DNA from: an uncultured cyanobacterium | GTDB lineage: Bacteria > Cyanobacteriota > Cyanobacteriia > PCC-6307 > Cyanobiaceae | DNA: 64,000 nt | Reading direction: 5' to 3' | Assembly (NCBI GenBank): GCA_963697335.1 | Contig: CAVONQ010000007.1 | Location: 162,878-226,877, forward strand | Part shown: piece after piece, positions 1 to 61,568 of the stretch | How positions within the stretch are numbered: the first letter of the stretch is position 1 | Layout of the letters: each line of letters opens with the position of its first letter | Position numbers and translations under genes: made by a program | The notes under the pieces: model-generated | The model's input: the letters and a program-made list of their open reading frames with translations, nothing else | Databases searched by the model: none | Told to the model about the DNA's origin: nothing

Positions 1-1017
1 CAGCAAGCCGTAGCGGGCCCGGGCGAAGCCCTCCAGGTCCCAGGCCTCCAATAGGTTATGGAGCCACAGCAGCACCGGCAGGTTGATCCCTCCGGGCGCC
101 TCGGACCAATCCGGCAGTCCCTCCTGCCAGGTCTGCAGCCAGCGGGCCCCCAGGGCCTCGTGGCGTGCCTGCCCGAGCTTCTCCAGCACAGGCGGCAGCA
201 GGTGGTCGGCCTGATCCAGCAGCCCCACGGCCTCCAGATGCAGGTCCAGGTCGGCCGGGCAGGACGCCCCCACGCTGATGGTGTCGATCCCTGGAGCCGA
301 GAGACAGAACAGGTCGTTGAACACGATCGGATGCAGGGGTGCGCACAGCTCAAGCAGCCGCGGGGATGGGGTGTGCAGATGGCCCCCCTTGTCCGTGGGG
401 CTGATCACGAACACGCCCATGTCGTGGCGGGCTGCCAGCTCCAGCGCAGGTTGGTTGTCCTGGCGGATGAAATACCAGTGGAGATTGATGTAGTCGAAGG
501 CATCGCTGGCGATGGCCTCGAGAATCAGCTCCAGGCTGGCGTGGGTGGAGAAGCCCACATGGCCGATGCGCCCCTGGCGCTGCCAGCGCCGCGCCACCTC
601 CATGCAGCCGCCCGGGCGCAGGGTGTGGTGCAGATGCTCCGGCAGGTTGACGCCATGGATGGCCAGCAGATCGACCCGCTCCACCGCAAGCCGCTCAAAG
701 CTGAGGCTGAGCTCGGCCTCAAAGGCGGCGGGATCCTCCTGGGGGGGCACCTTGGTCTGGAGGATGCGGCAGGGATCGGGGCGCTGGCCCAGCAACCAGC
801 CCAGCTGACGTTCGGAGCTGCCGTAATGGCGGGCAGTCTCGATGTGGTGCAGCCCCTGGGCCCTGGCCTGATCCAGGGTCGCGGCCAGATTGGCCTGGCT
901 CTCTGCGCTGATCTGGTCGCCGGGAAGGTCTGTCCAGCTCTGCTGAAACCGCATGCCCCCCATGGAGAGCACCGGCATGGCCAGCTCGGTGCGGCCGAAG
1001 CGACGGGTGGGAATCAT
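1..1017 (-). CDS. Aldo/keto reductase family oxidoreductase (3' end runs off the window)
   Basis: Not in the ORF track because it lacks a stop in the window. The reverse strand from ATG at 1017 reads MIPTRRFGRTELAMPVLSMGGMRF..., a typical AKR N-terminus; the + strand ORF 58..1023 is its antisense shadow. Confidence 0.85.
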   Translation of the reverse strand, partial: MIPTRRFGRTELAMPVLSMGGMRFQQSWTDLPGDQISAESQANLAATLDQARAQGLHHIETARHYGSSERQLGWLLGQRPDPCRILQTKVPPQEDPAAFEAELSLSFERLAVERVDLLAIHGVNLPEHLHHTLRPGGCMEVARRWQRQGRIGHVGFSTHASLELILEAIASDAFDYINLHWYFIRQDNQPALELAARHDMGVFVISPTDKGGHLHTPSPRLLELCAPLHPIVFNDLFCLSAPGIDTISVGASCPADLDLHLEAVGLLDQADHLLPPVLEKLGQARHEALGARWLQTWQEGLPDWSEAPGGINLPVLLWLHNLLEAWDLEGFARARYGLL

Positions 1018-1075
1018 GGCTGAAGCGGCTTGGTAGGCAAGCAGGGCCGGTGGCATGGCACCAGGCGGGCGAGTC

Positions 1076-1495
1076 CTAGGCCGATGGACTGACGTCGCGC
1101 CGGGGCAGGGTGCGTCTGACCCGGGAGGGGCTGGGGAAGCCGAGGGGCTGGATGTCCTGCTGGGAGAGCTGCTCGACCAGCGAGGGGAGCGCCTCGTAGG
1201 CCACCCAGTGGATGCAGTCCACGGGGCAGGTGTCAATGGCCTCCTGGATCCGATCGGTGCTGTCACCGTCCTGGCGGATGGCCCTGGAGCGTCCCCAGGT
1301 TTCCTCCACCAAGAACGTGTTGCCGGCCACGTGGGCGCAGTACCGGCAACCGATGCAGACGGCCTCATCGACCCACACGGCCTGCTGTCGCAGGGCACCG
1401 CCGAGGACCGGCTCAAGCCCCGTGGCGGCTGGCTGCTGGCGCTGACTCGGGGCTGTGAAGGCGAGGGCTGGATCGATGCCGGTGGTCACGCTCAA
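1076..1495 (-). CDS. Ferredoxin (4Fe-4S/3Fe-4S type)
   Basis: CIGCRYC and CPVDCI cysteine motifs. Confidence 0.85.
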   Translation of the reverse strand: MSVTTGIDPALAFTAPSQRQQPAATGLEPVLGGALRQQAVWVDEAVCIGCRYCAHVAGNTFLVEETWGRSRAIRQDGDSTDRIQEAIDTCPVDCIHWVAYEALPSLVEQLSQQDIQPLGFPSPSRVRRTLPRRDVSPSA

Positions 1496-1881
1496 CTCCA
1501 GCGGGTCACCACCAGTTCGATGCTGCCATCGGCCTGATTGGCCTGTTCGGTCACTTGGAAGCCCTCGTCGAGGCTGGCGGCGAGCACGGTGCGCAGGGCG
1601 TAGCGCTGGGTGAGCTGGGCGAGGAAGCGCTCCACGGGAACCTGCTGTCTCCAGAGGTCGAGGTCGGTGACCAGTTCGTAGCGCTCCTGGCTGGCGTTGA
1701 AGCGGAAGCCGATGTCGGCGCCGTTGGGCTGGCTGATCGCCACCTGGGCCAGCTCGCTCTGGCCGCGGTAGCCCCGCACTGGCAACTCCCCTTCCCTGGG
1801 GTCGTAGCCCAGGTCGCTGAGGGCTTCGAGCAGGGCCCCACGGTCACGGAGCTCGGTCTTGACGGTGCTGAAGTGGGACAT
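1492..1881 (-). CDS. ycf35: Ycf35/DUF1257 family protein
   Basis: Starts MSHFSTVKTELRD (ATG at 1881), contains VRGYRG and ends GSIELVVTRW; C-terminal part of ORF 1492..2370. Confidence 0.8.
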   Translation of the reverse strand: MSHFSTVKTELRDRGALLEALSDLGYDPREGELPVRGYRGQSELAQVAISQPNGADIGFRFNASQERYELVTDLDLWRQQVPVERFLAQLTQRYALRTVLAASLDEGFQVTEQANQADGSIELVVTRWS

Positions 1882-1885
1882 GGCC

Positions 1886-2092
1886 TCAGGTGAGCTGGGT
1901 GGTCTGGGATTCGTTCTGGAGCTGCCGGGCAGGCTGGTAGGCCTCCGCCGTGTTGCTGCGCTGCTGGACGCTGCCCAACCGGGCTTCGATGCGCTCGGTG
2001 AGCTGCTCGCAGCCCTGGCCCTGAACGCCCTCCACCAGTTCTTCGACCCGGCCATCGGGCCGGATGCAGAAGCGGATGGTGTGTTGCGCCAT
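1886..2092 (-). CDS. DUF2997 family small protein
   Basis: IRFxIRPDGRVEExVEGVxGxxCxxLT motif; usual neighbour of DUF1257. Confidence 0.8.
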   Translation of the reverse strand: MAQHTIRFCIRPDGRVEELVEGVQGQGCEQLTERIEARLGSVQQRSNTAEAYQPARQLQNESQTTQLT

Positions 2093-2146
2093 CCCGTGAC
2101 GGTTCGGATTATGGGGATGTTAGCCGTGATCTGGGGCAGGCTGGGA

Positions 2147-2980
2147 TCAGGCCAGCAGGCCCTCATCCACCAAGGTCTGGAGCCGCTCCAGCACCTCGGG
2201 CTGCTCCAGTTGCTCAAGGGCCAGCCGCGCTTCATCGCGCACGCCCGACTCCGCGTCGTGAAGCATGGTGTGCAGCAGGCACTCCACCAGCTCCTGCTGG
2301 CGCGGTTGCACCAAGTCGGCAAAGAGGCGACCCAGGCCCCAGGCACTGTTGCTGCGGACGGCAGGCTCACTGTCGATGCGCAGACTCAACAGCAGCTGGG
2401 CGGCCGCGGGATCCGCCTTGGCTGGCCCGGTGCTACCGGCATCCGCCAGGGAACTGGCGGCCCAGAGGCGTACCGCCGCGATGTCCACCTGCAGGGCCCG
2501 GATCAGGGGGTTGAGCACCGGCGCCTCGGGGTAGTTGCCGAGGCTCCAGGCCACGGCCTTGCGCACGTAGCCGTTGTCATCGCTGGCCAGCAGGGCCAGC
2601 AGGGGAGCCACGGCCTGGGGGCTGGGGTTGCGGCCCAGGGCGTACACCGCGCTCATCCGCAGGATCGGGCAGGAGGCCTCCAGCAAGGGCAACAGCAGGG
2701 GCACCGAGCGGGGATCACGGTGCTCACAGAAGATGCGCAGACCCTGCATGCGCTGCTCGTGGGCCCCGGCGAGCAGGGTCAAACCCAGCTCGCATTCGGC
2801 CACCACGTCCACCGCGCTGTCCTCGGCACCATCGAGCTCATCGAGCGGATCCCCCAGCAGCTCCTGGGCCAGCTCCTGGGCCAGCACGTCCGGATCGAGA
2901 TACAGCTCCTGGGGGCTCTCCGGATAGGGACCCGGCGTGGCTGGCAGCTCGGGCCAGGGATCAGACGGAGACACGCTCAC
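2147..2980 (-). CDS. HEAT-repeat (PBS lyase-like) protein
   Basis: Repeated helical motifs LRMSAVYALG, VRKAVAWSLG, VRLWAASSLA, VRSNSAWGLG. Confidence 0.8.
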   Translation of the reverse strand: MSVSPSDPWPELPATPGPYPESPQELYLDPDVLAQELAQELLGDPLDELDGAEDSAVDVVAECELGLTLLAGAHEQRMQGLRIFCEHRDPRSVPLLLPLLEASCPILRMSAVYALGRNPSPQAVAPLLALLASDDNGYVRKAVAWSLGNYPEAPVLNPLIRALQVDIAAVRLWAASSLADAGSTGPAKADPAAAQLLLSLRIDSEPAVRSNSAWGLGRLFADLVQPRQQELVECLLHTMLHDAESGVRDEARLALEQLEQPEVLERLQTLVDEGLLA

Positions 2981-2989
2981 CGGATTCGC

Positions 2990-3115
2990 TCAACCGACAG
3001 GAGCGGGGGCGGCCATGTCACCCGGCAGCCAGATGCGGGCACTGACGGCAAACAGCGCCAGGCCAAATAACACCACGATGGCGGCGGGCAGCAGGGTGGA
3101 GCGAAAGAATTGCAC
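2990..3115 (-). CDS. Small single-TM hypothetical protein (41 aa)
   Basis: GTG start; (M)QFFRSTLLPAAIVVLFGLALFAVSARIWLPGDMAAPAPVG; co-oriented with its neighbours. Confidence 0.6.
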   Translation of the reverse strand: MQFFRSTLLPAAIVVLFGLALFAVSARIWLPGDMAAPAPVG

Positions 3116-3164
3116 TGGGATCCGGCAGGAACTGGGGGCAGAAGGCCCACTACCGGGGCCATCA

Positions 3165-4934
3165 TCACCCCTGTGGGCCCTGCCCCAGCAGCCCGCGCAA
3201 CTGGCCCTGAAGCCGGCGCCCCTGCTGCAGCGCCAGGGTCCCCAGGACCGCCACCGCCAGACCACCCCAACCCCAGAGGGGCAGTTTGAGCAAAAAGCCG
3301 CCGATGCCTACCAGGGCACCGAACAGCACGGCACAGCTGCTCACCAGCTGGGTGAGCAGCTCCAGCAGCGTCTCCTCGGGTTCGACGCCGGTGCGCTGCC
3401 TCCAGCGGCGCCAGCCGGGCCCCGCCGGCCGCACCTGGCGCACGAAGTGCTCCAGCACCTCCGCAGACTCCGGCGGCGTGGAGAGCATCACCCCAATCCA
3501 CACCACTCCGGTCACGGCGGTGGTGACCAGCAACCGTTCGCCGTAGTCGTCGATGCGCAGCAACGGCACCACCGAGGTGCCGAAGCCCACCAGGAACCCT
3601 CCCAGCATCGCCGCCAGCTCGGCGGCGGCATTGACCCGCCACCAGAACCAGCGCAGCACCAGCACCACCCCCGGGCCCGTGCCGATGGCGATCACTAAGC
3701 GGAATACCGTGCCGATGTTGTTGCTGAGCAGGGCCGTGATCACGCCCAGCACCACCAGCAACACCGAGGCCAGCTGGGCGATCAGCAACAGCTCGCGCTC
3801 GCTGGCACGGGGTCGCATGAAGCGCTGGTAGAGGTCGTGGGTGAGGTAGCTGGCCCCCCAGTTCACCGCCGTGCTCACTGTGCTCATGAACGCCGCCACC
3901 AGGGACACCACCACCAGCCCGAGGGCCACAGGGGGCAGCAGCCGCACCGCCAGCAGCGGATAGCTCTGTTCCCAGTCGGTCTGGTCGGGCAGGAGCACCA
4001 CCGCCGCCAGGGCCACCAGGATCCAGGGCCAGCTGCGCAGCAGATAGTTCACCACCAGGAACACCCATGCCGCCACCCGGGCTTCCCGTTCGTTGCGGGT
4101 GGCCAGCAGCCGCTGGATGAACTCACCGCCCCCGTCGCTGCGGCGGAAGCTCCACCACTGCAGGGCGATGTAGGCCGTGAAGGTGGGCACGGAAATGCCG
4201 GCACCCTCCAGCCAGCGAATCCGGCCACCCTCCACCTGCCAGGGCACCATCGAGAGCAGCTCCGGGCGATCCAGGGCCCGCAGGCTGGCAAGCATCGCGT
4301 CCATGCCGCCGGCGGCGTGCACGGCCGCCACGGCCACGGCCACGGCACCGGCGAGGGCCAGCACAAGCTGGACCATGTCCGTCACCACCACGGCCCAAAG
4401 GCCGCCTGCCGCCGTGTAGATCAGCACCAGCACCCCCACGATCGCCAGCAGCGTGAGACGGGCCTCAGGAGTGGGGGCCAGGCCGAGGGCCTCACTCACC
4501 TTGGCCATGGCCAGGAAGGCGTAGCCGATGCCGATGCAGTTGATCGGCAGGGCGAACAGGAAGGCCTTGATGCCCCGCAGCCAGGCGGCCGTGGCTCCGC
4601 CGTAGCGCAATTCAGTGAAGGCGGCGTCGGTGAGCACACCACTGCGGCGCCAGAGGGGCGCGAACACCACGGCCATGGCCACGTGCGCCACCCCGAAGCT
4701 CCACCACTCCCAGTTGCCGGCCAGCCCGCGCACCCCCACGAGCCCGGCCACGTAGAGGGGGGTGTCCACCGAGAAGGTGGTGGCGGCCATGGAGGCGCCG
4801 GCCAGCCAGCCCTTGAGGCTGCGTCCGGCCACGAAGTAGTCCGACTGGTCGCGGTTGCGACGGGCCAGCCACAGGCCCAGCAGCAGACTGGCCCCTAAAT
4901 AGACGATCAGGATCAGCCAGTCGATCGTGTGCAA
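3165..4934 (-). CDS. Sodium:solute symporter family protein
   Basis: IDWLILIVY...DYFVAGRSL...SMAATTFSVDT and AAFMSTVST motifs, many TM helices; start placed at TTG 4934 (approximate). Confidence 0.85.
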   Translation of the reverse strand: MHTIDWLILIVYLGASLLLGLWLARRNRDQSDYFVAGRSLKGWLAGASMAATTFSVDTPLYVAGLVGVRGLAGNWEWWSFGVAHVAMAVVFAPLWRRSGVLTDAAFTELRYGGATAAWLRGIKAFLFALPINCIGIGYAFLAMAKVSEALGLAPTPEARLTLLAIVGVLVLIYTAAGGLWAVVVTDMVQLVLALAGAVAVAVAAVHAAGGMDAMLASLRALDRPELLSMVPWQVEGGRIRWLEGAGISVPTFTAYIALQWWSFRRSDGGGEFIQRLLATRNEREARVAAWVFLVVNYLLRSWPWILVALAAVVLLPDQTDWEQSYPLLAVRLLPPVALGLVVVSLVAAFMSTVSTAVNWGASYLTHDLYQRFMRPRASERELLLIAQLASVLLVVLGVITALLSNNIGTVFRLVIAIGTGPGVVLVLRWFWWRVNAAAELAAMLGGFLVGFGTSVVPLLRIDDYGERLLVTTAVTGVVWIGVMLSTPPESAEVLEHFVRQVRPAGPGWRRWRQRTGVEPEETLLELLTQLVSSCAVLFGALVGIGGFLLKLPLWGWGGLAVAVLGTLALQQGRRLQGQLRGLLGQGPQG

Positions 4935-4998
4935 GGCGAGCGGCGCTGGTGGGCGCAGTATGAAGGCGTGATCTCTGCCGGCCGCTGCGACCTGCCCG

Positions 4999-6510
4999 AT
5001 GCTGAACAGCTTCTTTGCCGACTCCCTCGACCAGGACACCGTGCGCAGGCGGATCCTGGACCTGGAGAACGGGCGAGTGGGGTTCTACAGCATCGGGCTC
5101 TACCCGGCATCGCTGGCCTACAACAGCGCCATGCACGGCGGCGGCGACCGCCTTTTGCTGGCTCCCCGGCCGGGCCGCTCCCTGTTCGGGGCCTTCACCC
5201 CGCGGGACCTCTCCGGCATGGATCCCCTCCATGTGGCGACCATGGAGAAAATGCTCGTGCACGAGCAGGATGGCGAGGTGCGACCGAACAGCCTGCGCAC
5301 CTTGATCGAGCTCTGTGATCTGGTGGTGCTCACCGCCAACAGCAACCACATCGAGCAGGACTTACACGAGGCTTGTGAGCTGCGGCGGGAACTCGGGCGC
5401 GAGCAGGTGGTGATGGCCTGCCTGGCTGGATCGTTCAGCCACGACCCGCTCCGCAACGATTCCTATGTGCTGTGTGAACGGCAGCCCAACCTGGCCTTCT
5501 TCTCAGGCTTCCACAGGCACGGCGCCCTGCGCGATCCCGTGGACAGCTTCACAGCCAATTTCTGCCATCCCAACGGCATCACCGCGATGATCGGCGCAAG
5601 GCTGATGGATCGGCTCTCTCCAAACATCCAGGTGTCACCTGGGGTCCACAACGTAGAGGCCCAGTACATCAAAGCCGCCAAGAATATCTCCTCAATCTTC
5701 GCTGGTTTCGGCTACTCCTTCCACGCCGAGAATACCGGTATTTTGCCCACCTTGCTCACCCTGTTGCTCGACCAGTGCCTGGATCAGGCCTCGGCCGTTT
5801 CGATGCGGCGCCGCGACCGGCAGCGCCTCTACGGCCGGCAGCCCTTTCCGCTCACCGAGCTGGGTTACGGGGTGCAGCGGATCGAGGCCACCCTCAGCCG
5901 GGGGGGCGAAATGGAGAAGGTGCGCGATCACACTTTCACCCAGCTCACGGCGATGGTGGCGGACGTGCGTGGCAGCATGATGCTGCCTGTATGCGGCAAA
6001 CCCACCCGTAACTTTCAGGCCGGGCAGATCCTGGCCGAGGGCATGCGCAAACTCAGCCGCTGCCCCGTGGATGTGGATGAATTCGAGCAATGGTGCGAGC
6101 AATCGGGCGTCAAGAAAGGCGGGCTCGAGGGCCTGAAGGCGTTGCGCTATTGGCCCCAGATTCTGTTGAACTACGGCATTCAGGTGCACGATGCTTCGAT
6201 GGTGAACCTGCTCTACATGGCGATCTTCGGTAAGAGCGACACCAAGGCCATTGCCTTTCGAGTCATGACCGAAAGCCGGGAACTCTCCAACTACTGCCAG
6301 GAATCCGTGCGCCCTTCCCACAGTCGGCGCTACTCGGAGGCACTGCAGAGCCTGGAGCGTCCCGAGAGCCTTGATCTGCTCGCCAACGCCGTCGTGGCCG
6401 ACAACGCCCGGCGGGCCATCCCCGACGACAGCAACACCGACGAGGGCAGTTCCAGCGAAGAGACACCGGCCTATCTCCGCGCCATGAATGTAATTGAAAA
6501 CGTGTGGTAA
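4999..6510 (+). CDS. Conserved hypothetical protein with remote similarity to NAD(P)H-dependent glycerol-3-phosphate dehydrogenase (GpsA fold)
   Basis: Clean 503-aa ORF. Motifs in GpsA order: DLVVLTANS, FFSG, KAAKNISSIFAG, TRNFQAG, LEGLKAL. Confidence 0.55.
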   Translation: MLNSFFADSLDQDTVRRRILDLENGRVGFYSIGLYPASLAYNSAMHGGGDRLLLAPRPGRSLFGAFTPRDLSGMDPLHVATMEKMLVHEQDGEVRPNSLRTLIELCDLVVLTANSNHIEQDLHEACELRRELGREQVVMACLAGSFSHDPLRNDSYVLCERQPNLAFFSGFHRHGALRDPVDSFTANFCHPNGITAMIGARLMDRLSPNIQVSPGVHNVEAQYIKAAKNISSIFAGFGYSFHAENTGILPTLLTLLLDQCLDQASAVSMRRRDRQRLYGRQPFPLTELGYGVQRIEATLSRGGEMEKVRDHTFTQLTAMVADVRGSMMLPVCGKPTRNFQAGQILAEGMRKLSRCPVDVDEFEQWCEQSGVKKGGLEGLKALRYWPQILLNYGIQVHDASMVNLLYMAIFGKSDTKAIAFRVMTESRELSNYCQESVRPSHSRRYSEALQSLERPESLDLLANAVVADNARRAIPDDSNTDEGSSSEETPAYLRAMNVIENVW

Positions 6511-50652: not shown

Positions 50653-51789
50653 GTGCCCGTGACTCCGTTCGGGCCGATCCGGTTGCTGGTGATCCAGCCC
50701 ACATCCCTCTGCAATCTCGACTGCTCCTACTGCTATCTGCCGGAGCGCCAGCGCCGGCTGCTGCTGGAGGAAGACCTGCTGCGGCCGATCCTGCAGCGGG
50801 TGCTGGAGAGCCCCTTTCTGGGCGAAGGGTTCACGCTGCTTTGGCACGCGGGGGAGCCGCTGACGCGGCCGCCCTCCTTCTACGAGCGGGCCAGCGAGGT
50901 TCTGGCCGAAATGCTGGCCCCCTACCCGGATCTGGCGGTGGTGCAGGCCCTGCAGACCAATGGCACCCTGATCAACAGCGCCTGGTGCGACCTGTTTCGT
51001 CGCCATGGCATCGAGGTGGGCGTGAGCCTGGATGGGCCGGCCTTCCTGCACGATCGCCACCGCCGCAACCGACTCGGCCATGGCAGCCATGCCGAGAGCC
51101 TGCGGGGCATTCGGGCCCTCCAGGAGGCCGGGATTCCGTTCTCGGTGATCAGTGTGCTCACCGAGGCCTCTCTGCACCACGCCGATGCGCTGGTGGATTT
51201 CTATCTGGAGCATGGCATCCAGGAGGTGGGCTTCAACATGGAGGAAACCGAAGGCGTGCATGAGCGCTCCAGCCTCAGCGGGGAGCCCTGTGAACAGCTC
51301 TACCGCCGCTTTCTGGAGCGGGTGTGGGAACGGGTGGCGGAGGCGAACGGGGCCTTGCGGATCCGCGAATTTGAAGAGCTCTATGCCTTCATTGCCAGCC
51401 GCTCCCGGGTGGATCACTCCGATCTCAACCGGCCGATGGCCATTGTGAGTGTGGACCACGCCGGCAACTTCTCCACCTTCGATCCAGAGCTGCTGTCAGT
51501 GGACACCAGCTACGGCCGCTTCAACCTCGGCAATGTGCGCACGGATTCCCTCGCCTCGGCCTGCAGCCATCCGCGCTTTCTGCAGATGTGGAACGACATG
51601 CAGGCGGGCCTGGAGGCCTGCCGCAGCAGCTGCGGTTACTTCGGCCTCTGTGGGGGCGGAGCCGGCAGCAACAAGTACTGGGAAACCGGCAGCTTCCGCG
51701 CCAGCGAAACCCAGGCCTGCCGCTACCGGATCAAGCACGTGGCCGATGTGGTGATGGCCAAGCTGGAGCAGGAGCTGCAGCTGAACTGA
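50653..51789 (+). CDS. grrM: GrrM cyclophane-forming radical SAM/SPASM peptide maturase
   Basis: IQPTSLCNLDCSYC, WHAGEP, FSTFDPELL and the SPASM motif CxxxCxYFGLCGGG...C. Confidence 0.92.
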   Translation: MPVTPFGPIRLLVIQPTSLCNLDCSYCYLPERQRRLLLEEDLLRPILQRVLESPFLGEGFTLLWHAGEPLTRPPSFYERASEVLAEMLAPYPDLAVVQALQTNGTLINSAWCDLFRRHGIEVGVSLDGPAFLHDRHRRNRLGHGSHAESLRGIRALQEAGIPFSVISVLTEASLHHADALVDFYLEHGIQEVGFNMEETEGVHERSSLSGEPCEQLYRRFLERVWERVAEANGALRIREFEELYAFIASRSRVDHSDLNRPMAIVSVDHAGNFSTFDPELLSVDTSYGRFNLGNVRTDSLASACSHPRFLQMWNDMQAGLEACRSSCGYFGLCGGGAGSNKYWETGSFRASETQACRYRIKHVADVVMAKLEQELQLN

Positions 51790-52819: not shown

Positions 52820-53458
52820 ATGGACACCTTCACCGAGCTGGTTGGGCACACCCTGCGCCTCCAGCCCGACGCCTTCCGACTGCTCCGCGCTGGCGAGCTG
52901 TCGGCCTGGTGGGGGGTGCTGATCGCCCTGCTGGCCGGGCTGTCCCAGGGCATCGGCCACGGCTTCATCCTGTTTGTGAACCGGGTGTCGCCGCTGCGCT
53001 TCGGCCTCAGCCTGGTGGTGGAGGCGGTGCTGGTGGTGGTGGGCTTTCTGTTCTGGGCCCTGAGCACCTGGCTGGTGGCGCGCCTGGGCTTCGGGGTGGC
53101 GATCAGCCCCACCACGGTGGTGCTGGCGCTGGGGGTGGCCCATGCCCCGGAGCTGCTGGCCTTCCTCGGCGCCCTGCCCTACCTCGGCGTGCCCTGGCTC
53201 ACGCTCCTCTCCCTGTGGACGGCGATCGCCTTCGTGGTGGCCCTGGTGGAGGTGGCCGGCCTGGGGGCCTGGCAGGCCTTCATCGCCCTGCTCGCCGGCT
53301 GGCTGGTGATGCTGCTGCTGCAGCGCCGCGCCGGTCAGCCGCTGATGCGCCTGGGCCGCAGCCTGCTGAACCGCACCGCCGGGGTGCAGCTGGTGCGGGA
53401 CCGCCGCGCCTTGAGCGTGTTGCTGGATGGCGACCCCCGAGCCCGGCAGCGGCGATGA
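52820..53458 (+). CDS. Yip1-like multi-pass membrane protein
   Basis: AGLSQGIGHGFILFVNRV and LGALPYLG motifs; about 5 TM helices; ATGA overlap with the next gene. Confidence 0.7.
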   Translation: MDTFTELVGHTLRLQPDAFRLLRAGELSAWWGVLIALLAGLSQGIGHGFILFVNRVSPLRFGLSLVVEAVLVVVGFLFWALSTWLVARLGFGVAISPTTVVLALGVAHAPELLAFLGALPYLGVPWLTLLSLWTAIAFVVALVEVAGLGAWQAFIALLAGWLVMLLLQRRAGQPLMRLGRSLLNRTAGVQLVRDRRALSVLLDGDPRARQRR

Positions 53459-56334
53459 GGCTGTGGGTGCGTCGCCATCGCCGCTGGCTGCTGGGTGGCC
53501 TGCTGCTGGCCCTGAGCGTGCTGCTGCCGGGCGCGGGCCTGCTGCTGGCCCTGGCCCGCCACACCCTGGTGCGCAGCTTCGGGGTGGTGGTGGACCTGAT
53601 CGGCATCGGCCTGGTGCTGTTTCTGGTGGCCGCCCTGCTGGCACCGCTGCAGGCCCTGGGTTGGTGGGCCGGCTGGTTCGGCGACGCCGAGGAGGGCCCC
53701 TCCAACCTGGGACAGCTGGCGGTGCCCGTGGCCGCCGACCGCACCATGCGGCGCTGGGTGGTGTATCTCGACGGCATCGGCCAGGCCTCCCAGCAAGCCC
53801 TGCCGGAGGGGGAGGACTTCCTGCGCCGGCTGGCGGCCGTCCTGCCGGACGACATCGCCATCCTGCGCGGGATCATGCCCTACTCGATCACCAACCAGCC
53901 CCTCACCGAGGGCCGCTGGCTGGCCCGGTTCTGGCGCTGGGTCGACGCCTGGCGGGTGCGCCGTCCCCTCGCCTGGCTGGGCCTGCTGGTGAACCTGCGC
54001 AACCTCACCGTGGTGGCGGTGTCGGCCGATGGCCGCTACGGCCCGCTGTACAACGCCGGCATGGCGGAGCTGATCGTGGGCTCCCTGCTGGCCAACGGCT
54101 ATGCCCCAGGCAGCGGCACGCCAGTGACGCTGCTGGGCTTCAGCGGTGGCGGCCAGATCTCCCTCGGGGCCCTGCCCCATGTGCGCCAGATGCTCGCCGC
54201 GCCGGTGCAGGTGATCTCCCTGGCCGGGGTGTTCGCGGGCAACAACCGGGTGCTGCAGGCGGAGCACCTCTTCCATCTGGTGGGCGCTCGGGACCGGGTG
54301 GCGCCCCTGGGCTCAATCCTGTTTCCGCGTCGCTGGCCCATCTTTCTGTTCTCGCCCTGGAACCGGGCGTTGCAGCGCGGCCGGGTGAGCCTGGTGCCGC
54401 TGGGGCCGGTGGGCCATGAACTGCCAGGCGGGGTAATGGAGGCCCGGCTCACCCTCCCCGATGGACGCACGCCCATGCAGCAGACCGTGGACCTGGTGAG
54501 CGCCATCCTTGCCATCCCAGACGGTGGCCCGTCGGCCCTGGCGGCGGCCGGCGGCAACTACAGCCGCTTCATCACCAACCCCTGGCACCGGCCCGATGGC
54601 CGCCGCGACCTGGCCCCCCTGCCGGATCCGCGCCTGCAGCCGCGGCCCCACTGGATCGGCCGGCTGATCCTGCCGGAGGCGGCTGCGCGCGATGGCTCCG
54701 TGGGCTTCGAGGTGCTGCAGGCGCCGCCCGGCTGGGGCCACTGCCGCGGCCGCATCGCCACCCTGCGCTGGCGTGATCCGGCCATGGCGCAGGTGACCAT
54801 GGACGTGTGCTTCAGCGATGAGGCCCGCGACAGCGCCCGCTCCGGCAACCTGCACCCGCTACGGCTGGATGGCTGGGCCCAGGTGACGCCGCTGGAGTCC
54901 CTGGCTGGGGCCCATCCCGACGACAACATGCTGGTGCGGCTGCCCGAACCGGTGGCCGTGCTGCACGAGGGGACGCCAGGGGCCGAGGGCGAGCGGCTGC
55001 AGCTGGAGGTGAGCGCCGAACCGCTGCAGACCGCCGGCCTGGCCCGGGCCCTGGTGCGGTTCGTGAGGCCCCTGGAGGGCGACGTCTGGGAGGCACTGGT
55101 CTTTGATCCGGCCTGCGGCGCCTTCACGGGGCCACCGCTGCGGCTGCGCCTGCCCCAGCCGGTGGCCAACGCGGAGGGCATCCTGCCCGCCTGCGCCGAC
55201 GGGCTGGCGGAGGGGGAGCTCAACCAGGAGGGCTGGGAGGTGAGCGGAGTGCCGGACGGCAGCGGCGCATTCGTGGTGCAGGCGCTGCTGCCGCGGCGGC
55301 TGCGGCGGCTGGCTCCCCAGCGGCTGATCCCCCAGCGCCGCGCCGCCTGGCGCTACCTGCGCCACCAGGCCTGGGGCGACACCACCGCCGGCGCCGCCAG
55401 CTCGGTGCTGCTGGCGGGGCGCGGGGCTGAGGCGAGCAATGGGCAGGCCCTGCTGGCCGAGTGGCAGGAGGGCGACCGGCTGCTGGTGCTGCACGTGTTC
55501 GGCGGCATCGGCGGCGAACAACGGGAGCAGGCCCTGCGCAGCGGCCTCTGCACGGGTCACTTCGCCTACGGCTTCGGCAGGGTGCTGCGCAATCCCCTGG
55601 CCGGCGGTGAACTCTCCGTGGCAGTGGACTACTGCCAGGTGTATGCCCACAACCCCGATGGCCTCGTGGCCGGCGCCCAGGACCGCTGGCGCTATCTCGG
55701 CGAGCGCCAGTGGGGCTGGCTGGGCTGTCGGCCCGTGGCCGACATTCTGGTGCGCTTTCCTCCCTTCACCGGCAGCTACAGCCTCGGGCCAGCGGGCGCC
55801 GAGCGACAGCGCTCTCCACTGGAGGCCTTCGGCCGCCAGCTCACGGCGATGATGGCCCGCTACCGCATCGGCGATGGCGGCGGTGGCAGCTTCGTGGGGC
55901 CGGCCCACAACTGCGCCCAGGACTCCAACCTGGCCCTGTTCGCCGCCATCCGCGACCTGGACAGGGAGATCCGCGGCGCTGACTCGCAGCGCCTTCAGGA
56001 TTGGGAGCAGCGCCATCCTCAGCAGGCCGCACGCCTGGACGCCCTGCTGGAGCTGGAGCGCATCCTGCGGGGCCGGCTGCTGCCGGTGCCGCCCCTGCGC
56101 GACGACTGGCAGCGGGGTTCGTTCCGCCTCGGCAGCAGCCTGGACGCCCAGCCGCTGCACGATCTGCTCCAGGGCCTGGGCAGCTGGCGTTCGCTGCTGC
56201 CGCGCCTGGCCTGCGAGTCGGTGCTGAAGGTGTTCCTCGATCAGGGGGCCACGGCCCTGGTGCTGCGGGCCAACCAGGTGGGGGGGCACAACCCGCGCAT
56301 TGCCCCGGTGGCGCCGCTCACGCTGGGGTGCTGA
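53455..56334 (+). CDS. Large membrane-anchored hypothetical protein (959 aa) with an N-terminal alpha/beta-hydrolase-like domain and a C-terminal His/Cys domain
   Basis: True ATG at 53455 (coupled to the upstream stop); YLDGIG, GFSGGG, GHFAYG and NCAQDSN motifs. Confidence 0.7.
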   Translation: MRLWVRRHRRWLLGGLLLALSVLLPGAGLLLALARHTLVRSFGVVVDLIGIGLVLFLVAALLAPLQALGWWAGWFGDAEEGPSNLGQLAVPVAADRTMRRWVVYLDGIGQASQQALPEGEDFLRRLAAVLPDDIAILRGIMPYSITNQPLTEGRWLARFWRWVDAWRVRRPLAWLGLLVNLRNLTVVAVSADGRYGPLYNAGMAELIVGSLLANGYAPGSGTPVTLLGFSGGGQISLGALPHVRQMLAAPVQVISLAGVFAGNNRVLQAEHLFHLVGARDRVAPLGSILFPRRWPIFLFSPWNRALQRGRVSLVPLGPVGHELPGGVMEARLTLPDGRTPMQQTVDLVSAILAIPDGGPSALAAAGGNYSRFITNPWHRPDGRRDLAPLPDPRLQPRPHWIGRLILPEAAARDGSVGFEVLQAPPGWGHCRGRIATLRWRDPAMAQVTMDVCFSDEARDSARSGNLHPLRLDGWAQVTPLESLAGAHPDDNMLVRLPEPVAVLHEGTPGAEGERLQLEVSAEPLQTAGLARALVRFVRPLEGDVWEALVFDPACGAFTGPPLRLRLPQPVANAEGILPACADGLAEGELNQEGWEVSGVPDGSGAFVVQALLPRRLRRLAPQRLIPQRRAAWRYLRHQAWGDTTAGAASSVLLAGRGAEASNGQALLAEWQEGDRLLVLHVFGGIGGEQREQALRSGLCTGHFAYGFGRVLRNPLAGGELSVAVDYCQVYAHNPDGLVAGAQDRWRYLGERQWGWLGCRPVADILVRFPPFTGSYSLGPAGAERQRSPLEAFGRQLTAMMARYRIGDGGGGSFVGPAHNCAQDSNLALFAAIRDLDREIRGADSQRLQDWEQRHPQQAARLDALLELERILRGRLLPVPPLRDDWQRGSFRLGSSLDAQPLHDLLQGLGSWRSLLPRLACESVLKVFLDQGATALVLRANQVGGHNPRIAPVAPLTLGC

Positions 56335-56685
56335 GGGCCGATCGAGGAGCAACGTCTCGCGTCAGCGCGAAGGAATTGGCGTTCCATCGACTGCCGCTGT
56401 CGGCAACTGATCGCCCCACTCCCTGCACCATGACATCAATCCATCCATCTCACTGCCACCGAGAGCAAAAGACTAAGAAATTTGAAAGCGCGCAAGGCAA
56501 CGGCGACAACGCACTAACCTGACAAGAGGCTGCCTCATTTTGCTGGAAATGACGTGGGCAACCTTGACCGATCAAGACTCCTGAGGTCATCGCCTTAGCC
56601 ATCAGCAAGGTATGCCGAGGTGTCATTCAAGCGGCGGTCTGTACCCAGCTGCGAACAGCTCACCTTGTCACTACGAGATCAACCC

Positions 56686-58254
56686 ATGGCCACGAAGAAG
56701 CCCAACATCATCCTGCTGGTGACCGATGACACGGGCTATGGCGATCTCGGCCCCTATGGCGGCGGCGAAGGGCGGGGCATGCCAACGCCTCATTTTGATC
56801 GGTTGGCCGCAGAAGGCATGACCTTCTTCTCCTTCTATGCCCAACCGAGTTGCACCCCGGGCCGGGCGGCCATGCAGACGGGCCGCATCCCCAACCGCAG
56901 CGGCATGACCACCGTGGCCTTCCAGGGACAGGGCGGTGGCTTGCCCGCGGCGGAGTGGACCCTGGCTTCGGTGCTGAAACAGGGGGACTACCGCACCTTT
57001 TTCACCGGGAAATGGCACCTGGGTGAGTCGGATTACGCCCTGCCCAATGCCCAGGGCTATGACGAGATGAAGTATGTGGGCCTCTATCACCTGAATGCCT
57101 ACACCTATGCCGATCCCACCTGGTTCCCGGACATGGCTCCAGAGCTGAGGGCCAAATTCCAGAGCGTGACCAAGGGGTCCCTTTCAGGCAAGGCCGGTGA
57201 GGCGGCGAAGGAGGATTTCAAGATCAATGGGCAATACGTTGACAAGCCAGATGAAGGCGTGGTGGGGATTCCCTTCTTCGATGGCTATGTCGAGAAAGCA
57301 GCGATCGAATTTCTAGAAGATGCTGCCAAGGAAGAGCAGCCATTCTTCCTGAATGTCAACTTCATGAAGGTGCACCAGCCCAACCTGCCCCATCCCGACT
57401 TCATTCACAGCTCGCCGTCAAAAAGCAAGTATGCGGATTCGATTGTGGAGCTGGATGCCCGGATCGGAGCGATCATGAACAAGGTGCGGGAGCTGGGCCT
57501 GGAAGAGGACACATTGGTGTTCTGGACAACCGATAACGGCGCCTGGCAGGACGTCTATCCCGATGCGGGCTACACGCCATTTCGCGGCACAAAAGGCACC
57601 GTCCGCGAAGGAGGCAACCGCGTACCCGCCATTGCCTGGTGGCCAGGCAAGATCAAGGCAGGCACGAAGAACCACGACATTCTGGGCGGCCTTGATCTGA
57701 TGGCCACCTTTGCTGCCCTGGCCGAAGTCTCCCTGCCTGCGAATGATCGCGAGGGGCAACCAACCATCTTTGACAGCTACGACATGTCGCCAGTGCTGTT
57801 CGACACCGGCAAGTGTGAGCGGGATTCATGGTTCTACTTCACTGAAAACGAGCTCACACCAGGGGCCGTTCGCCTGAACAACTACAAGGCCGTGTTCAAC
57901 CTGCGGGGTGACGATGGCGCCACCACAGGAGGCCTGGCCGTGGACTCCAACCTGGGCTGGAAAGGTGGTGAGAGCTACGTCGCCGTGGTGCCCCAGCTCT
58001 TTGACCTCTGGCAAGACCCGCAGGAGCGCTACGACATCTTCATGAATAACTACACAGAACGCACCTGGGTGCTGGTGACTATCGGCGACGTAACCAAAGA
58101 GCTGATGAAAACCTATGTGCAGTATCCACCCCGCAAGATGCAGGGCGAGGGCTACTCAGGCCCCGTCACGCTCACCCAGTACGAACGCTTCCAGCACGTC
58201 CGGGACTCCCTTGCTGCTGAGGGCATCAAGATCACCCTACCCACAGGGAACTAG
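56686..58254 (+). CDS. Arylsulfatase (Cys-type formylglycine sulfatase)
   Basis: KPNIILLVTDD, SCTPGRAA (CxPxR), GKWHLG, TDNG and REGGNRVP motifs. Confidence 0.92.
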   Translation: MATKKPNIILLVTDDTGYGDLGPYGGGEGRGMPTPHFDRLAAEGMTFFSFYAQPSCTPGRAAMQTGRIPNRSGMTTVAFQGQGGGLPAAEWTLASVLKQGDYRTFFTGKWHLGESDYALPNAQGYDEMKYVGLYHLNAYTYADPTWFPDMAPELRAKFQSVTKGSLSGKAGEAAKEDFKINGQYVDKPDEGVVGIPFFDGYVEKAAIEFLEDAAKEEQPFFLNVNFMKVHQPNLPHPDFIHSSPSKSKYADSIVELDARIGAIMNKVRELGLEEDTLVFWTTDNGAWQDVYPDAGYTPFRGTKGTVREGGNRVPAIAWWPGKIKAGTKNHDILGGLDLMATFAALAEVSLPANDREGQPTIFDSYDMSPVLFDTGKCERDSWFYFTENELTPGAVRLNNYKAVFNLRGDDGATTGGLAVDSNLGWKGGESYVAVVPQLFDLWQDPQERYDIFMNNYTERTWVLVTIGDVTKELMKTYVQYPPRKMQGEGYSGPVTLTQYERFQHVRDSLAAEGIKITLPTGN

Positions 58255-58627: not shown

Positions 58628-58633
58628 TTAGGC
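58548..58633 (+). mobile_element. Integron attC recombination site (86 bp)
   Basis: AAC-5 nt-gctCgagccgAcaccgcc ... ggcggtgcggctcagc-5 nt-GTTAGGC. The arms pair perfectly except C58563 and A58570, which are the G and T extrahelical bases on the bottom strand. Confidence 0.85.
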
Positions 58634-58657
58634 CCATCAAAAAAGAGGAGAAACACA

Positions 58658-61564
58658 ATGGCTGAAACATCTATCAAAAACGATGTCTTCAAGTTTGTCG
58701 CTTTGCGTCCACCTACTAAACGAAAGATCCAACCTCTATCACCGGGTCGCATCGTAGATACGCGACAGGTGAATGACACTCCTGTCGGCAGGATCATTCG
58801 GAAACTGGGAAGCAATGCCAATATGGACCGGGTACTACCCCAGGTAAAGCGACTTATCAACGAGAAGAACTGGTCCTCGGAGATTATCAGGGACCAGGAT
58901 GTAGCAACTATCGCGGCAACGTACCGAGCCATCGACGAGCAACTGCAGAACTTTTCTACTGAAGGCTTCGTCAAGTCGATTGAAGAGGCACTTGGTTCAT
59001 CCCCAAAAGACTTTATTCAAAGCGAGTCGGCAAATTATATTCGCGAGGGCTTGTGGGACCGATTACATGCCTTCTACCTATTAAATCGTGAGACTCCGGT
59101 TAACCTTGAAGAAATCATCGGCGGACTGCGCGCTTTCCACATTGTTGAATCGTTGGCAAACGGCGAGCAATTTAGTTCAGCGGATGACCTTAGAGAGGCT
59201 TTGAATGCCGTAGTACTGCTACCTAATTCACTCGTGCGCATCGCACCTGTCACGTCCACAGAGCGTCCACGCGTTCGCGAACAGCAGGAACGCGATAAGG
59301 CTAAACGTGAACATTTTGTTAGCCTTTGGGTCAGATACATCGAATTGAATAAAGCGGTTGATGACGTTCAACGACTAAATCCGAAAATTGAGGTGATAAA
59401 AGAAACACCGAAACCTGTATTGTACAAACAGGAAATTGACATACCTCAGACAGCAACAAATGCGACAACGGATCGTGCATTGTTATCTGTCTCGATGCAG
59501 CGCTTCCCGAAGTTCGAAAAAGCCGATATCAATGCATTGAGTCCCGCAGCTCATGCCGCAATTACACTTATTAATAAGGAGCCTGAGTTTAAAGATAAAT
59601 TCGAAGCGTTAAACAAACTGCACGATGAATTATCCAGTGTGACTGTGCAACTTCTATCTATTAAAGATCCGACACTTACGGAAATGATGCCTGATGAAGC
59701 AAGGCAACTACCTGCTTCCCTGACTATAATGGCAAGAAATGAATATTTATCTAGCCTGGGATTTTCCGAATTACCATCGCCATTCCCGTATCCTTGGAAA
59801 ATTAATTCACGGATTCGGCCGCTTGGTATTGGGGATCTCAAGGTTGTAAAACAAATCTTGCAGCAGTATGTTGCCGGCGAAGTCGCACACATCGAAAACG
59901 TGCTTCAGGGCGAGTCAAAAGAGCGCAAACACCGTATATTGGATCGAAACGAGGAGATTGTTACTGCCGAGTTGGAGACCTCCGAGGACACCGAACGCGA
60001 CACGCAGACGACTGACCGTTTTGAGTTAAAAAAAGAATCAGAAAAAACAATTCAAACTGATATGAGTGTATCTGCCGGTGTTACGGTCAGTGCATCCTAT
60101 GGCCCCGTCCAACTCGGTGCAAATGCCAACTTTGCCTACAGTCAATCTCAGACAGATACAACACGGACTTCGTCAAACTACGCTCGTGACGTTGTAGACC
60201 GTTCAGTGACAAGAATTCAGAAAAAAACGCGCGAAGAACGAGTAACCAAAGCCCTCCACGAGGTTGAGGAAATTAATACCCATGGTTTGAACAATGCGGA
60301 AGGAACAGGAAATATTACAGGAGTATATCGCTGGGTGGATAAATATTACGAGGCACAGATTTACAACTATGGAAAACGCATGATGTTCGAATTTATCGTG
60401 CCCGAACCAGCCGCATTCTATATTTATTCTCAAAACAACAATCCAGCCAAAGCCATTAATCTGGAAAAACCGAAACCTCTTGGTAACATCACACACAAAG
60501 ATATTACAGAATCGAACTATCATATCTTTATCCGTGATTACAATGTGCAAGGAGTAACTCCGCCACCTCCGGAATATCATAGACTCGGGATCGCATTTGA
60601 TCAGTCAGGCATGCAGCCAGACCAAGACACAACAAAATCGAGTCACGACCTCGTCGTTCCCGATGGATATGCTGCGGTAGACTGGTTCGGTCAGGGAAAC
60701 TACAGGTATTGGACAGGGCATGAGGCAGACATGAATTTGTGGATAGGAATAAAGGGGGGACATTTGGGAACATACCTTGACCCAGCACCGCTAAGTGGTG
60801 AGGACATGGTCGTTCCCGTAGCAATAGTAGCTGGTCAAATATCATCATACGCCTACACAGTTGAAATACATTGTGAACGGACTAGGCGTCATTACAAACA
60901 ATGGCAGATCGATACGTTTGAGAAAATTATGGCTGCGTATAAAGCAGCTATGGCTGAATACGAGGATAGACTGCGCGCCGCTGAAGCGCGGGTTGGTATC
61001 GCTATCACCGGCCAAAATCCAACCATCAATCGAGAAATCGAACGTACAGAGATGAAGAAAAGCTGTCTTACGCTACTAACCGGAGAGCGTTACGAAAACT
61101 TCAACTCCATGAGTGGAGAACCACCCGAAATCGATCTTGTGGATGCGGCAGAGGAAGGCAGATTTATTCAGTTTTTTGAACAAGCCTTCGAGTGGGAACA
61201 AATAACCTATCTATTCTACCCGTATTTCTGGGGTCGTAAGGATAAATGGGTAACGAATTCGACGACCTTCGACAATGATCCGTTATTTACAAAGTTTCTG
61301 CAGGCCGGTGCCGCGCGCATCGTTGTACCGGTCCAGCCCGCCTATAACGATGCGATCCTCTATTATTTGCAGACCGGGGATTTATGGAATGGAGGAGATC
61401 CGCCTGTTATCGATGATCCTCTTTATATCGCGTTGTACGAAGAGTTAAAGGATCAACAGGACGATCTTGGCAATGCGACACCGGAAGGCGATCCATGGAA
61501 AGTAGTCTTGCCAACGACTTTGGTTTGGTTGCAGCAAGGGCCTGAACTTCCAGTCTTCATATAA
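58658..61564 (+). CDS. Uncharacterised 968-aa low-GC cassette protein, possibly pore-forming/toxin-like
   Basis: Intact ORF with a strong RBS (AAGAGGAG) right after attC; Ser/Thr-rich alternating segment MSVSAGVTVSASYGPVQLGANANFAYSQSQT. Confidence 0.8.
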   Translation: MAETSIKNDVFKFVALRPPTKRKIQPLSPGRIVDTRQVNDTPVGRIIRKLGSNANMDRVLPQVKRLINEKNWSSEIIRDQDVATIAATYRAIDEQLQNFSTEGFVKSIEEALGSSPKDFIQSESANYIREGLWDRLHAFYLLNRETPVNLEEIIGGLRAFHIVESLANGEQFSSADDLREALNAVVLLPNSLVRIAPVTSTERPRVREQQERDKAKREHFVSLWVRYIELNKAVDDVQRLNPKIEVIKETPKPVLYKQEIDIPQTATNATTDRALLSVSMQRFPKFEKADINALSPAAHAAITLINKEPEFKDKFEALNKLHDELSSVTVQLLSIKDPTLTEMMPDEARQLPASLTIMARNEYLSSLGFSELPSPFPYPWKINSRIRPLGIGDLKVVKQILQQYVAGEVAHIENVLQGESKERKHRILDRNEEIVTAELETSEDTERDTQTTDRFELKKESEKTIQTDMSVSAGVTVSASYGPVQLGANANFAYSQSQTDTTRTSSNYARDVVDRSVTRIQKKTREERVTKALHEVEEINTHGLNNAEGTGNITGVYRWVDKYYEAQIYNYGKRMMFEFIVPEPAAFYIYSQNNNPAKAINLEKPKPLGNITHKDITESNYHIFIRDYNVQGVTPPPPEYHRLGIAFDQSGMQPDQDTTKSSHDLVVPDGYAAVDWFGQGNYRYWTGHEADMNLWIGIKGGHLGTYLDPAPLSGEDMVVPVAIVAGQISSYAYTVEIHCERTRRHYKQWQIDTFEKIMAAYKAAMAEYEDRLRAAEARVGIAITGQNPTINREIERTEMKKSCLTLLTGERYENFNSMSGEPPEIDLVDAAEEGRFIQFFEQAFEWEQITYLFYPYFWGRKDKWVTNSTTFDNDPLFTKFLQAGAARIVVPVQPAYNDAILYYLQTGDLWNGGDPPVIDDPLYIALYEELKDQQDDLGNATPEGDPWKVVLPTTLVWLQQGPELPVFI

Positions 61565-61568
61565 AGGG

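Follow-up and report, generated by a model that had tools for sequence, protein, structure and literature searches.

A widespread family of hypothetical proteins with a probable giant beta-hairpin, encoded next to exchangeable toxin-type enzymes

We analysed a stretch of 64,000 nucleotides (nt) from an uncultured cyanobacterium of the Cyanobiaceae (assembly GCA_963697335.1, contig CAVONQ010000007.1, positions 162,878–226,877), hereafter the window. Near its end, an intact open reading frame (ORF) at 58658–61564 on the forward strand starts with ATG and encodes a protein of 968 amino acids (aa). A Shine-Dalgarno-like GAGGAG can be read from the sequence at 58645–58650 (+), 7 nt 5′ of the ATG. 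We found that this gene is the conserved first gene of a cassette with two genes, the second of which is a toxin-type enzyme that differs from locus to locus. Here it is a PAD-family arginine deiminase (protein-arginine deiminase, PAD), which starts at 61569, 4 nt past the stop of the 968-aa gene.

The PAD gene extends from 61569 to 64000 (+) and runs off the window, and two of its fragments match the Pfam PAD family. In the window this copy is split over three frames and carries an in-frame stop; tblastn searches with intact PAD relatives located the frame shifts near 61750 and 63165. The window is the end of contig C7, and its last 5.37 kb (58631–64000) overlaps the start of contig C1 (positions 1–5363 of G000:C1, our locus L071) with 99.5% identity, 15 mismatches and 9 gap openings. 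The differences are clustered in the PAD gene and leave the 968-aa protein unchanged between the copies. The C1 copy of PAD is intact (a 951-aa ORF, L071:2939–5794) and matched Pfam PAD with 123.4 bits (cut-off 25, E = 1.5e-35). Low-depth contigs of a public run matched the C1 version at the two covered sites, ~63166–63194 and 63878–63882; this run may be the source sample, and its agreement with C1 is not counted as independent support. Because the overlapping C1 copy is intact and the public-run contigs agree with it, we regard the broken reading frame in the window as an artefact of the contig end or of strain variation, and not as a sign of a dead partner. In the alignment to PAD4, WLQDQ, VGHIDE and HCGTN of the partner stand opposite WMQDE, VGHVDE and HCGTN, the residues of which we take to be the catalytic residues of PAD4. 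Judged from its sequence, the deiminase is apparently active.

Next, we looked at the composition around the two genes. The GC content of the window is about 63–73% up to 56 kb and 46–49% from 58 kb on, and it is back to 0.6–0.75 about 6 kb into C1. Therefore, the low-GC island (roughly 6 kb) consists essentially of the two genes. The 968-aa protein had no match in 24 genomes of the same genus and 16 others of the same class, and this absence from 40 related genomes points to a recent horizontal acquisition of the two-gene island. Flanking repeats or att sites were sought at its borders, and no k-mer of ≥11 nt was common to both sides. After the PAD stop, at 5870–5915 of L071, there is a GC-rich inverted repeat, CCGCCCAAAGTGC...GCACTTTGGGCGG, which has no T-run and was not called by the terminator scan.

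The preliminary description of this DNA had presented the 968-aa product as an orphan. This was overturned by the homology searches, in which 3818 representatives of 50%-identity clusters matched at E ≤ 1e-3, 3267 of them at ≤ 1e-10 and 2264 at ≤ 1e-30. These thousands of homologues also rule out a spurious ORF. When 8000 candidates were scored, 930 homologues had E ≤ 1e-3; they are mostly full length with 40–65% identity, and every source annotates them as 'hypothetical'. Relatives were confirmed in 480 GTDB species genomes, bacterial as well as archaeal. The 60 placed locus proteins cover ten bacterial phyla (Pseudomonadota, Bacteroidota, Actinomycetota, Chloroflexota, Acidobacteriota, Cyanobacteriota, Verrucomicrobiota, Thermomicrobiota, Fibrobacterota and Methylomirabilota) and one archaeal phylum, represented by a Methanosaeta genome. 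Fifteen plasmids carry a relative, including p01 of Bacillus thuringiensis HD-771 and a Natronorubrum megaplasmid, and none was found in a collection of 50,697 phage records.

The conserved core of the family comprises residues ~384–967, and in many relatives the alignment begins only near residue 384. Evolution is faster in the N-terminal ~380 residues; still, BLAST links 55 of 56 N-terminal regions into a single family. We considered whether N-terminal types dictate the class of the partner enzyme, and this was ruled out, as that one family mixes all partner classes. The 968-aa protein has no match among Pfam, NCBIfam, PADLOC or PDB sequences: the Pfam scan at E ≤ 1 returned a chance DUF3206 match, PADLOC-DB 2.0 contained no family matching at E ≤ 0.01, and phmmer and profile searches of the PDB sequences gave chance helical matches to coronavirus nsp8 (E ≥ 0.037). 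The ESM Atlas yielded unnamed clusters of the same family and a weak DUF2382 lead (0.86). The parts we consulted of three related papers, their supplements excluded (PMC4417212, PMC8826395, PMC3482391), contain no mention of the family or of any conserved gene preceding lodA or PAD genes, and literature searches likewise turned up no account of either. Some relatives (P0124, P0179, P0209 and P0260) have C-terminal additions, namely F5/8 type C (25.4 bits, under the Pfam cut-off of 28.2), DUF5648 and DUF3597. The F5/8 type C and DUF5648 additions are typical surface-binding modules, which we count in favour of a pore or delivery function. A search for longer fused forms, in itself weak evidence, found none above 1695 aa.

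To define the gene order, 68 related loci were fetched, 65 of which extend ≥600 nt past the end of the family gene. In 63 of the 65, the start of a second ORF (≥150 aa, same strand) lies −60 to +150 nt from the stop of the family gene, with gaps mostly of 2–33 nt; in the other two, this distance is +242 and +185. Upstream of the family gene, nothing is conserved among the related loci. We are highly confident that this is a cassette of a conserved gene and a swappable enzyme gene.

The partners belong to many unrelated families. The most frequent is a cluster of ~670–860-aa proteins with weak to moderate Het-C matches (13 of the 65 loci, 5 with Pfam Het-C), followed by PAD (8, plus this genome), patatin-like phospholipases (7) and a pair of unknown proteins, c3(+c4), at 7 loci. 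The latter, c3 of ~360 aa and c4 of ~510 aa, were seen at L012, L035, L037, L044, L047 and L050 and have no Pfam or PADLOC match. Other partners are PT-TG pre-toxin proteins (5, one of them also with a CdiA_C toxin domain), LodA followed by a flavoprotein (4), flavin amine oxidases (4), phospholipase D (PLD; 3) and a metallophosphoesterase (1); the rest are small or unclassified. Het-C is described in the part consulted of PMC3482391 as a recognised toxin domain, predicted to be PLC/S1-P1-like. LodA-type oxidases, according to the part consulted of PMC4417212, are antimicrobial via H2O2 and require the downstream flavoprotein for cofactor formation. This repertoire of phospholipases, H2O2-generating oxidases, PT-TG/CdiA_C, Het-C and PAD fits antagonism between organisms.

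On p01 of HD-771 (L072, 6972–11023), a 967-aa relative annotated as hypothetical overlaps a 383-aa hypothetical gene by 4 nt; the product of the latter has a distant likeness to the unknown partner class c23 (28% identity, E = 8e-19). On a Natronorubrum bangense plasmid (L073, 4291–9346), a 71-aa ORF separates the relative (annotated as 1147 aa) from a patatin-like phospholipase gene downstream. Archaeal membranes are ether-linked, and for this reason an acyl-ester phospholipase on a haloarchaeal plasmid should target other organisms and not its producer.

We then compared the partner classes with the phylogeny of the family gene. The FastTree tree was made from 65 of the 69 core sequences, rows of less than 700 aa being excluded (L024, L026, L040 and L052); L060 entered the tree as 'other' and was afterwards found to be Het-C-cluster-like. 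On this tree, no fewer than 32 changes are required to explain the distribution of partner classes, against a possible minimum of 10; shuffled labels gave a mean of 45.6, with none of 200 shuffles as low as 32. Therefore, partners are inherited over short ranges, yet are often swapped. The present locus is itself an example: the 968-aa protein nests in a Het-C-associated clade (72% identity to that of L014) yet has PAD, and the closest PADs stand behind family proteins of a different clade.

Flanking ORFs were scanned at the related loci (144 of the 157 selected), and most of them are ordinary metabolic or transport genes. About 14 of the 144 are mobile-element or defence-like, such as TIR+AAA_35, PD-(D/E)XK with DUF2357, an Eco57I-type methylase, ParE, Fic, an integrase and IS200. 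No third gene is conserved across loci; small downstream ORFs occur at a few PT-TG loci (e.g., one of 180 aa at L033).

These surroundings bear on an explanation that differs from delivery, namely an intracellular conflict system of the abortive-infection (Abi) or another anti-phage type. In such a system, a 970-aa family protein would sense infection and activate or release the enzyme, with killing of the producer, and the amphipathic hairpin described below might damage the producer's own membrane. The cytoplasmic look of both proteins, which lack signal peptides, agrees with this, as do the defence-like flanking ORFs and the match of the patatin and PLD partners to PADLOC effector models. 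A compact, horizontally moving pair of a conserved component and variable effectors is also what is found in many defence systems. However, the conserved protein has neither a PADLOC match nor an NTPase, nuclease or other recognised sensor domain, its neighbours are mostly housekeeping genes, and the phage records contain no match. LodA with its maturation flavoprotein, the amine oxidases, PT-TG/CdiA_C and Het-C typify exported antagonistic toxins and not Abi effectors, and a patatin in an ether-lipid haloarchaeon would have no obvious target in the producer itself. We consider a conflict system unlikely.

The most distinctive part of the protein lies at the start of the conserved core. Covariation was calculated as average-product-corrected (APC) mutual information over columns 386–582 in 180 distinct sequences (effective number, Neff, 138). 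The antidiagonals i+j = 961, 963 and 965 had means of 0.034, 0.043 and 0.035, respectively, over a background of −0.0003 ± 0.0062; the highest other antidiagonal reached 0.017, and the even sums 962 and 964 gave 0.004 and 0.007. Of the 25, 50 and 100 highest-scoring pairs, 17, 22 and 32, respectively, fall on these three antidiagonals, which comprise 1.5% of all pairs. The signal was present separately in each of the segments 388–430, 431–468 and 469–480. The constant sum together with the odd/even parity indicates an antiparallel beta ladder, not a helical hairpin. Strands predicted by AlphaFold2 (AF2) at 388–415/553–582, 420–429/536–545, 434–437/528–531 and 478–481/484–487 fit i+j of ~963–965. 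Accordingly, residues 388–575 (59819–60382, +) probably form one giant antiparallel hairpin of about 94 rungs in the register i+j = 963, with its turn at Tyr481-Gly482.

This region is conserved in length as well as in its turn. Y481, G482 and P483 are invariant or nearly so in the family, and columns 386–582 are nearly gap-free. Of the 60 locus proteins in which both motifs flanking the hairpin were found, 52 have them 191 or 192 residues apart, as do 200 of 223 proteins overall, and this constant-length set includes proteins of Actinomycetota, Pseudomonadota, Bacteroidota, a Bacillus plasmid and a Methanosaeta genome.

The tip of the hairpin, residues 469–494 (60062–60139, +), comprises 12 amphipathic rungs and is the candidate membrane-spanning part, going by its face composition and beta moment. 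Face A has a mean Kyte-Doolittle (KD) value of +2.21 with 0% acidic and 1% basic residues, and face B has a mean of −1.42 with 36% Ser/Thr. The shaft rungs, 412–468, are polar on both faces and 15–33% acidic; the base of the hairpin, 388–411, is of mixed character. When hydrophobicity was averaged over 48 homologues, 13 of the 15 top beta-periodic hydrophobic-moment windows of the whole protein were centred on 460–486, so the alternating pattern exceeds chance. We estimate that twelve such rungs correspond to about one membrane thickness and that the polar shaft adds roughly 150–190 Å (2.7–3.3 Å per residue). The anthrax stem, in comparison, measures ~105 Å.

This tip coincides with a Ser/Thr-rich alternating stretch, MSVSAGVTVSASYGPVQLGANANFAYSQSQTDTT, that the preliminary description had singled out as a candidate membrane-inserting hairpin. 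The stretch occupies residues 469–502, from nt 60062; the end then given for it, 60175, reaches residue 506. That proposal gained support from our analysis, in which the stretch forms the tip of a hairpin backed by covariation, with one face hydrophobic and the other polar, and the predicted structure does not bury it in a globular fold. Several simpler observations were borne out too. The N-terminal half is modelled as helical: in the domain of residues 1–380 (58658–59797, +), which is mainly helical and faster evolving, AF2 placed helices at 42–361 (about 30–360) with a predicted local distance difference test (pLDDT) score of mostly 77–92 for the block. A charged segment follows at residues 408–457, and the aromatic motifs FFEQAFEWE and FYPYFWG lie at 838–859 and are nearly invariant across the family. 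There is no transmembrane helix (the best 19-residue KD mean is 1.42, at residues 717–735) and no signal peptide, the N-terminus, MAETSIKNDVFKFVALRPPTKRK, being devoid of a hydrophobic core.

For the core, residues 370–968 were modelled from a deeper alignment of 82 rows, which clearly improved the prediction (pLDDT 78.3, predicted TM-score (pTM) 0.61). This model has confident strands of 28–30 residues at 388–415 and 553–582 and a low-confidence middle, 427–539, which holds the alternating stretch. Behind the hairpin, residues 638–742 (60569–60883, +) form a beta-sandwich domain with pLDDT >90, and residues 743–968 (60884–61561, +) form long helices and an alpha/beta domain, mostly of high pLDDT, which bears the invariant aromatic motif FFEQAFEW...YPYFWGR. 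Both models were compared with the PDB (Foldseek, VIA-align wide), and the core model also with BFVD. Matches were confined to the sandwich and were generic, of the jelly-roll or CUB-like kind (best FlhE, 4qxl, with Z 8.9 and a root-mean-square deviation of 3.0 over 102 residues); the sandwich dominated these searches, which hardly probed the hairpin and the N- and C-terminal domains. A complex prediction with four copies of residues 384–600 scored 0.00 with an uncertain fold of the partners, and is evidence neither way.

The sandwich and the hairpin could also be parts of a structural carrier that is not a pore. In that case a fibre, spike or scaffold made of hairpins would display, store or shield the enzyme until its release, with no conducting channel. 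A long beta ribbon with a polar shaft, a jelly-roll-like sandwich and long helices are common in fibrous and capsid-associated assemblies, and the weak matches of the sandwich include phage cement, tail and capsid-decoration proteins. Sequestration of the enzyme would explain why no conserved immunity gene stands beside the phospholipase, oxidase and PAD partners, and extracellular oxidases require anchoring rather than translocation. Against a carrier, a tip of 12 rungs that is hydrophobic on one side, with 0–1% charge on that face, is hard to explain for a soluble fibre. Neither phage genomes nor fibre or capsid families gave a match by sequence, and the partners share no targeting peptide. 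A carrier of this kind appears improbable to us.

The constant length of the hairpin speaks to a further explanation, an export conduit, in which the 968-aa protein would insert in the producer's own envelope and let the leaderless enzyme out. Neither protein has a signal peptide, the cassette contains no other export gene, and the hairpin could in principle be long enough for an envelope. However, the 191–192 residues between the flanking motifs are the same in monoderm, diderm and archaeal producers, whereas a length fitted to the envelope would differ among them, and the protein offers just one membrane-length hydrophobic segment. We regard this as very unlikely.

Next, we compared the 968-aa protein and its cassette with known systems. 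One close conceptual likeness is to the B components of the anthrax protective antigen (PA) type (PA, C2II, Ib, CDTb and Vip1), where each subunit has one amphipathic hairpin and the enzyme is encoded by a separate adjacent gene. The PA stem has a Ser/Thr-rich polar face, a polar acid-rich shaft and a barrel stem with a membrane-spanning tip. From the covariation and the tip faces, the 968-aa protein also has one amphipathic hairpin per subunit, which might form a barrel stem. In contrast to the PA type, it has no Binary_toxB or PA14 homology at E ≤ 1, no PDB sequence match and no signal peptide; its partners are many unrelated enzyme families that share no docking domain, the family is present in archaea, and its hairpin has about 94 rungs, whereas that of PA has roughly 39. 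With aerolysin and the ETX-MTX2 toxins it has in common a candidate insertion hairpin of alternating pattern with Ser/Thr at its borders, as well as very long strands (28–30 residues in the model). It differs from them in being three times larger, in its 380-aa helical N-terminal domain and in having an enzyme partner, and it gave no Pfam or PDB sequence match to them; fold matches were obtained only for the sandwich, with the hairpin region barely probed.

The cassette resembles polymorphic toxin systems (Zhang et al. 2012, PMC3482391) in the recombinational swapping behind a conserved delivery-type gene and in having PT-TG, CdiA_C and Het-C among its partners. Here, however, the toxin is a separate whole gene (63 of 65 loci) and not a C-terminal fusion, no conserved immunity gene was seen, and the 968-aa protein has none of the RHS, TcA, TcB or TcC domains of polymorphic toxins and Tc toxin complexes. 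Tc toxins are also leaderless. In the pairs of streptolysin O (SLO) with NAD-glycohydrolase and of perforin with granzymes, the pore former aids the entry of an enzyme, and the SLO genes are adjacent; the present family differs in lacking CDC/MACPF homology, in having one hairpin per subunit instead of two and in a far more diverse set of partners. Defence systems with swappable effectors, for example CBASS with the patatin CapV, likewise combine a conserved gene with variable patatin, PLD and phosphoesterase effectors, but the 968-aa protein lacks a PADLOC match and any known sensor domain, such as a cyclase or an NTPase. As far as sequence comparison can tell, the 968-aa protein would belong to none of these systems, and the length of the hairpin, the missing leader, the payload encoded as a whole gene and the occurrence in archaea appear to set it apart.

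Tentatively, we favour a role in pore formation or delivery for the 968-aa protein, as a subunit of a new toxin cassette with two genes; we think this quite possible, without claiming that it is established. This reading builds on the observed size of the family, the architecture of the cassette, the swapping of partners, the horizontal acquisition, the register of the hairpin and its amphipathic tip. In this model, the gene would encode the conserved component of a mobile cassette, the second gene of which is a swappable toxin-type enzyme, here the protein-arginine deiminase. As a two-stranded ribbon of such length cannot stand alone, the simplest assumption is that the hairpins of several copies would join side by side into a long beta-barrel stalk, the 12-rung hydrophobic tip of which would span the target membrane. 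In A-B terms, the 968-aa protein would be the 'B' subunit, forming the pore or serving delivery, and the adjacent enzyme would be the 'A' subunit, a payload or co-toxin, which might pass through the pore or reach its substrates because of the pore. Since both proteins lack a signal peptide, release would occur via lysis or some other route. We infer the oligomer, the barrel, the insertion in a membrane, the target cell and the physical link to the enzyme. The earlier suggestion that the protein might deliver PAD in the manner of an A-B toxin was strengthened by the swappable toxin-type enzymes that stand behind the family gene in most related loci, and weakened by the lack of a signal peptide in either protein. 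Overall, the observations of the preliminary description were partly confirmed, and its interpretation was partly supported.

A number of results weigh against this proposal. The likeness to aerolysin and to binary toxins that had been pointed out was not borne out by the searches: neither sequence nor fold matched these or any solved pore former, the fold comparisons being dominated by the sandwich. The partners, too, lack signal peptides, except the c17 ORFs, which may be unrelated neighbours, and no N-terminal docking motif is common to them that would point to binding of the 968-aa protein. The H2O2-producing oxidases (LodA and the amine oxidases) act extracellularly and do not need translocation. 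The 144 flanking ORFs include no secretion system, lysis cassette or conserved immunity gene. The 94-rung hairpin is far longer than known toxin stems, and may bend or serve a structural role other than a pore. Many residues of the shaft are invariant (E408, H411, E413, N414, E419, R423, R426 and others), which is not obviously needed for the wall of a tube. Finally, the AF2 model has pLDDT <50 for residues 427–539, where the hairpin rests on the covariation, and a first, shallower AF2 model contained short helices within the hairpin region.

A more far-reaching form of the favoured proposal is that the family constitutes a polymorphic toxin delivery module of bacteria and archaea that is independent of the envelope, with a stalk of ~94 rungs and its tip in the target membrane, serving as a conduit or access device for many exchangeable enzymes, among them PAD, phospholipases, oxidases and toxins of the nuclease type. 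At 2.7 Å per residue, we estimate such a stalk at roughly 250 Å, to our knowledge over double that of the longest toxin stem known. In this full form, we consider the proposal rather doubtful.

Other genes of the window were noted in the high-GC part. A radical-SAM enzyme gene (Pfam Radical_SAM, 1.8e-15) at 50653–51789 lies about 5 kb upstream of a sulfatase gene (Pfam Sulfatase, 1.1e-41) at 56620–58254. Both are at or near the GC content of the host, and the pair could represent a partnership of the anaerobic sulfatase-maturase type. A putative 1141-aa ORF at 52909–56334, in a high-GC host region, had no Pfam match at E ≤ 0.01; long overlapping antisense ORFs are typical at such a GC content.

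Whether or not the idea of a pore fails, two firm new descriptions follow from this work: the cassette of a conserved gene and a swappable enzyme, and the 94-rung hairpin defined by covariation. If the favoured reading is true, an unrecognised class of two-gene toxins would have its shared chassis in thousands of 'hypothetical proteins' from eleven or more phyla. This would assign a function to a large dark family with the architecture of a single giant hairpin, provide a catalogue of interchangeable enzymatic payloads and account for the orphan surroundings in which many bacterial genes for PAD, LodA, patatin, PLD and Het-C are found. It would also offer a testable model of how leaderless toxins get to their targets, and a natural modular scaffold for protein delivery.

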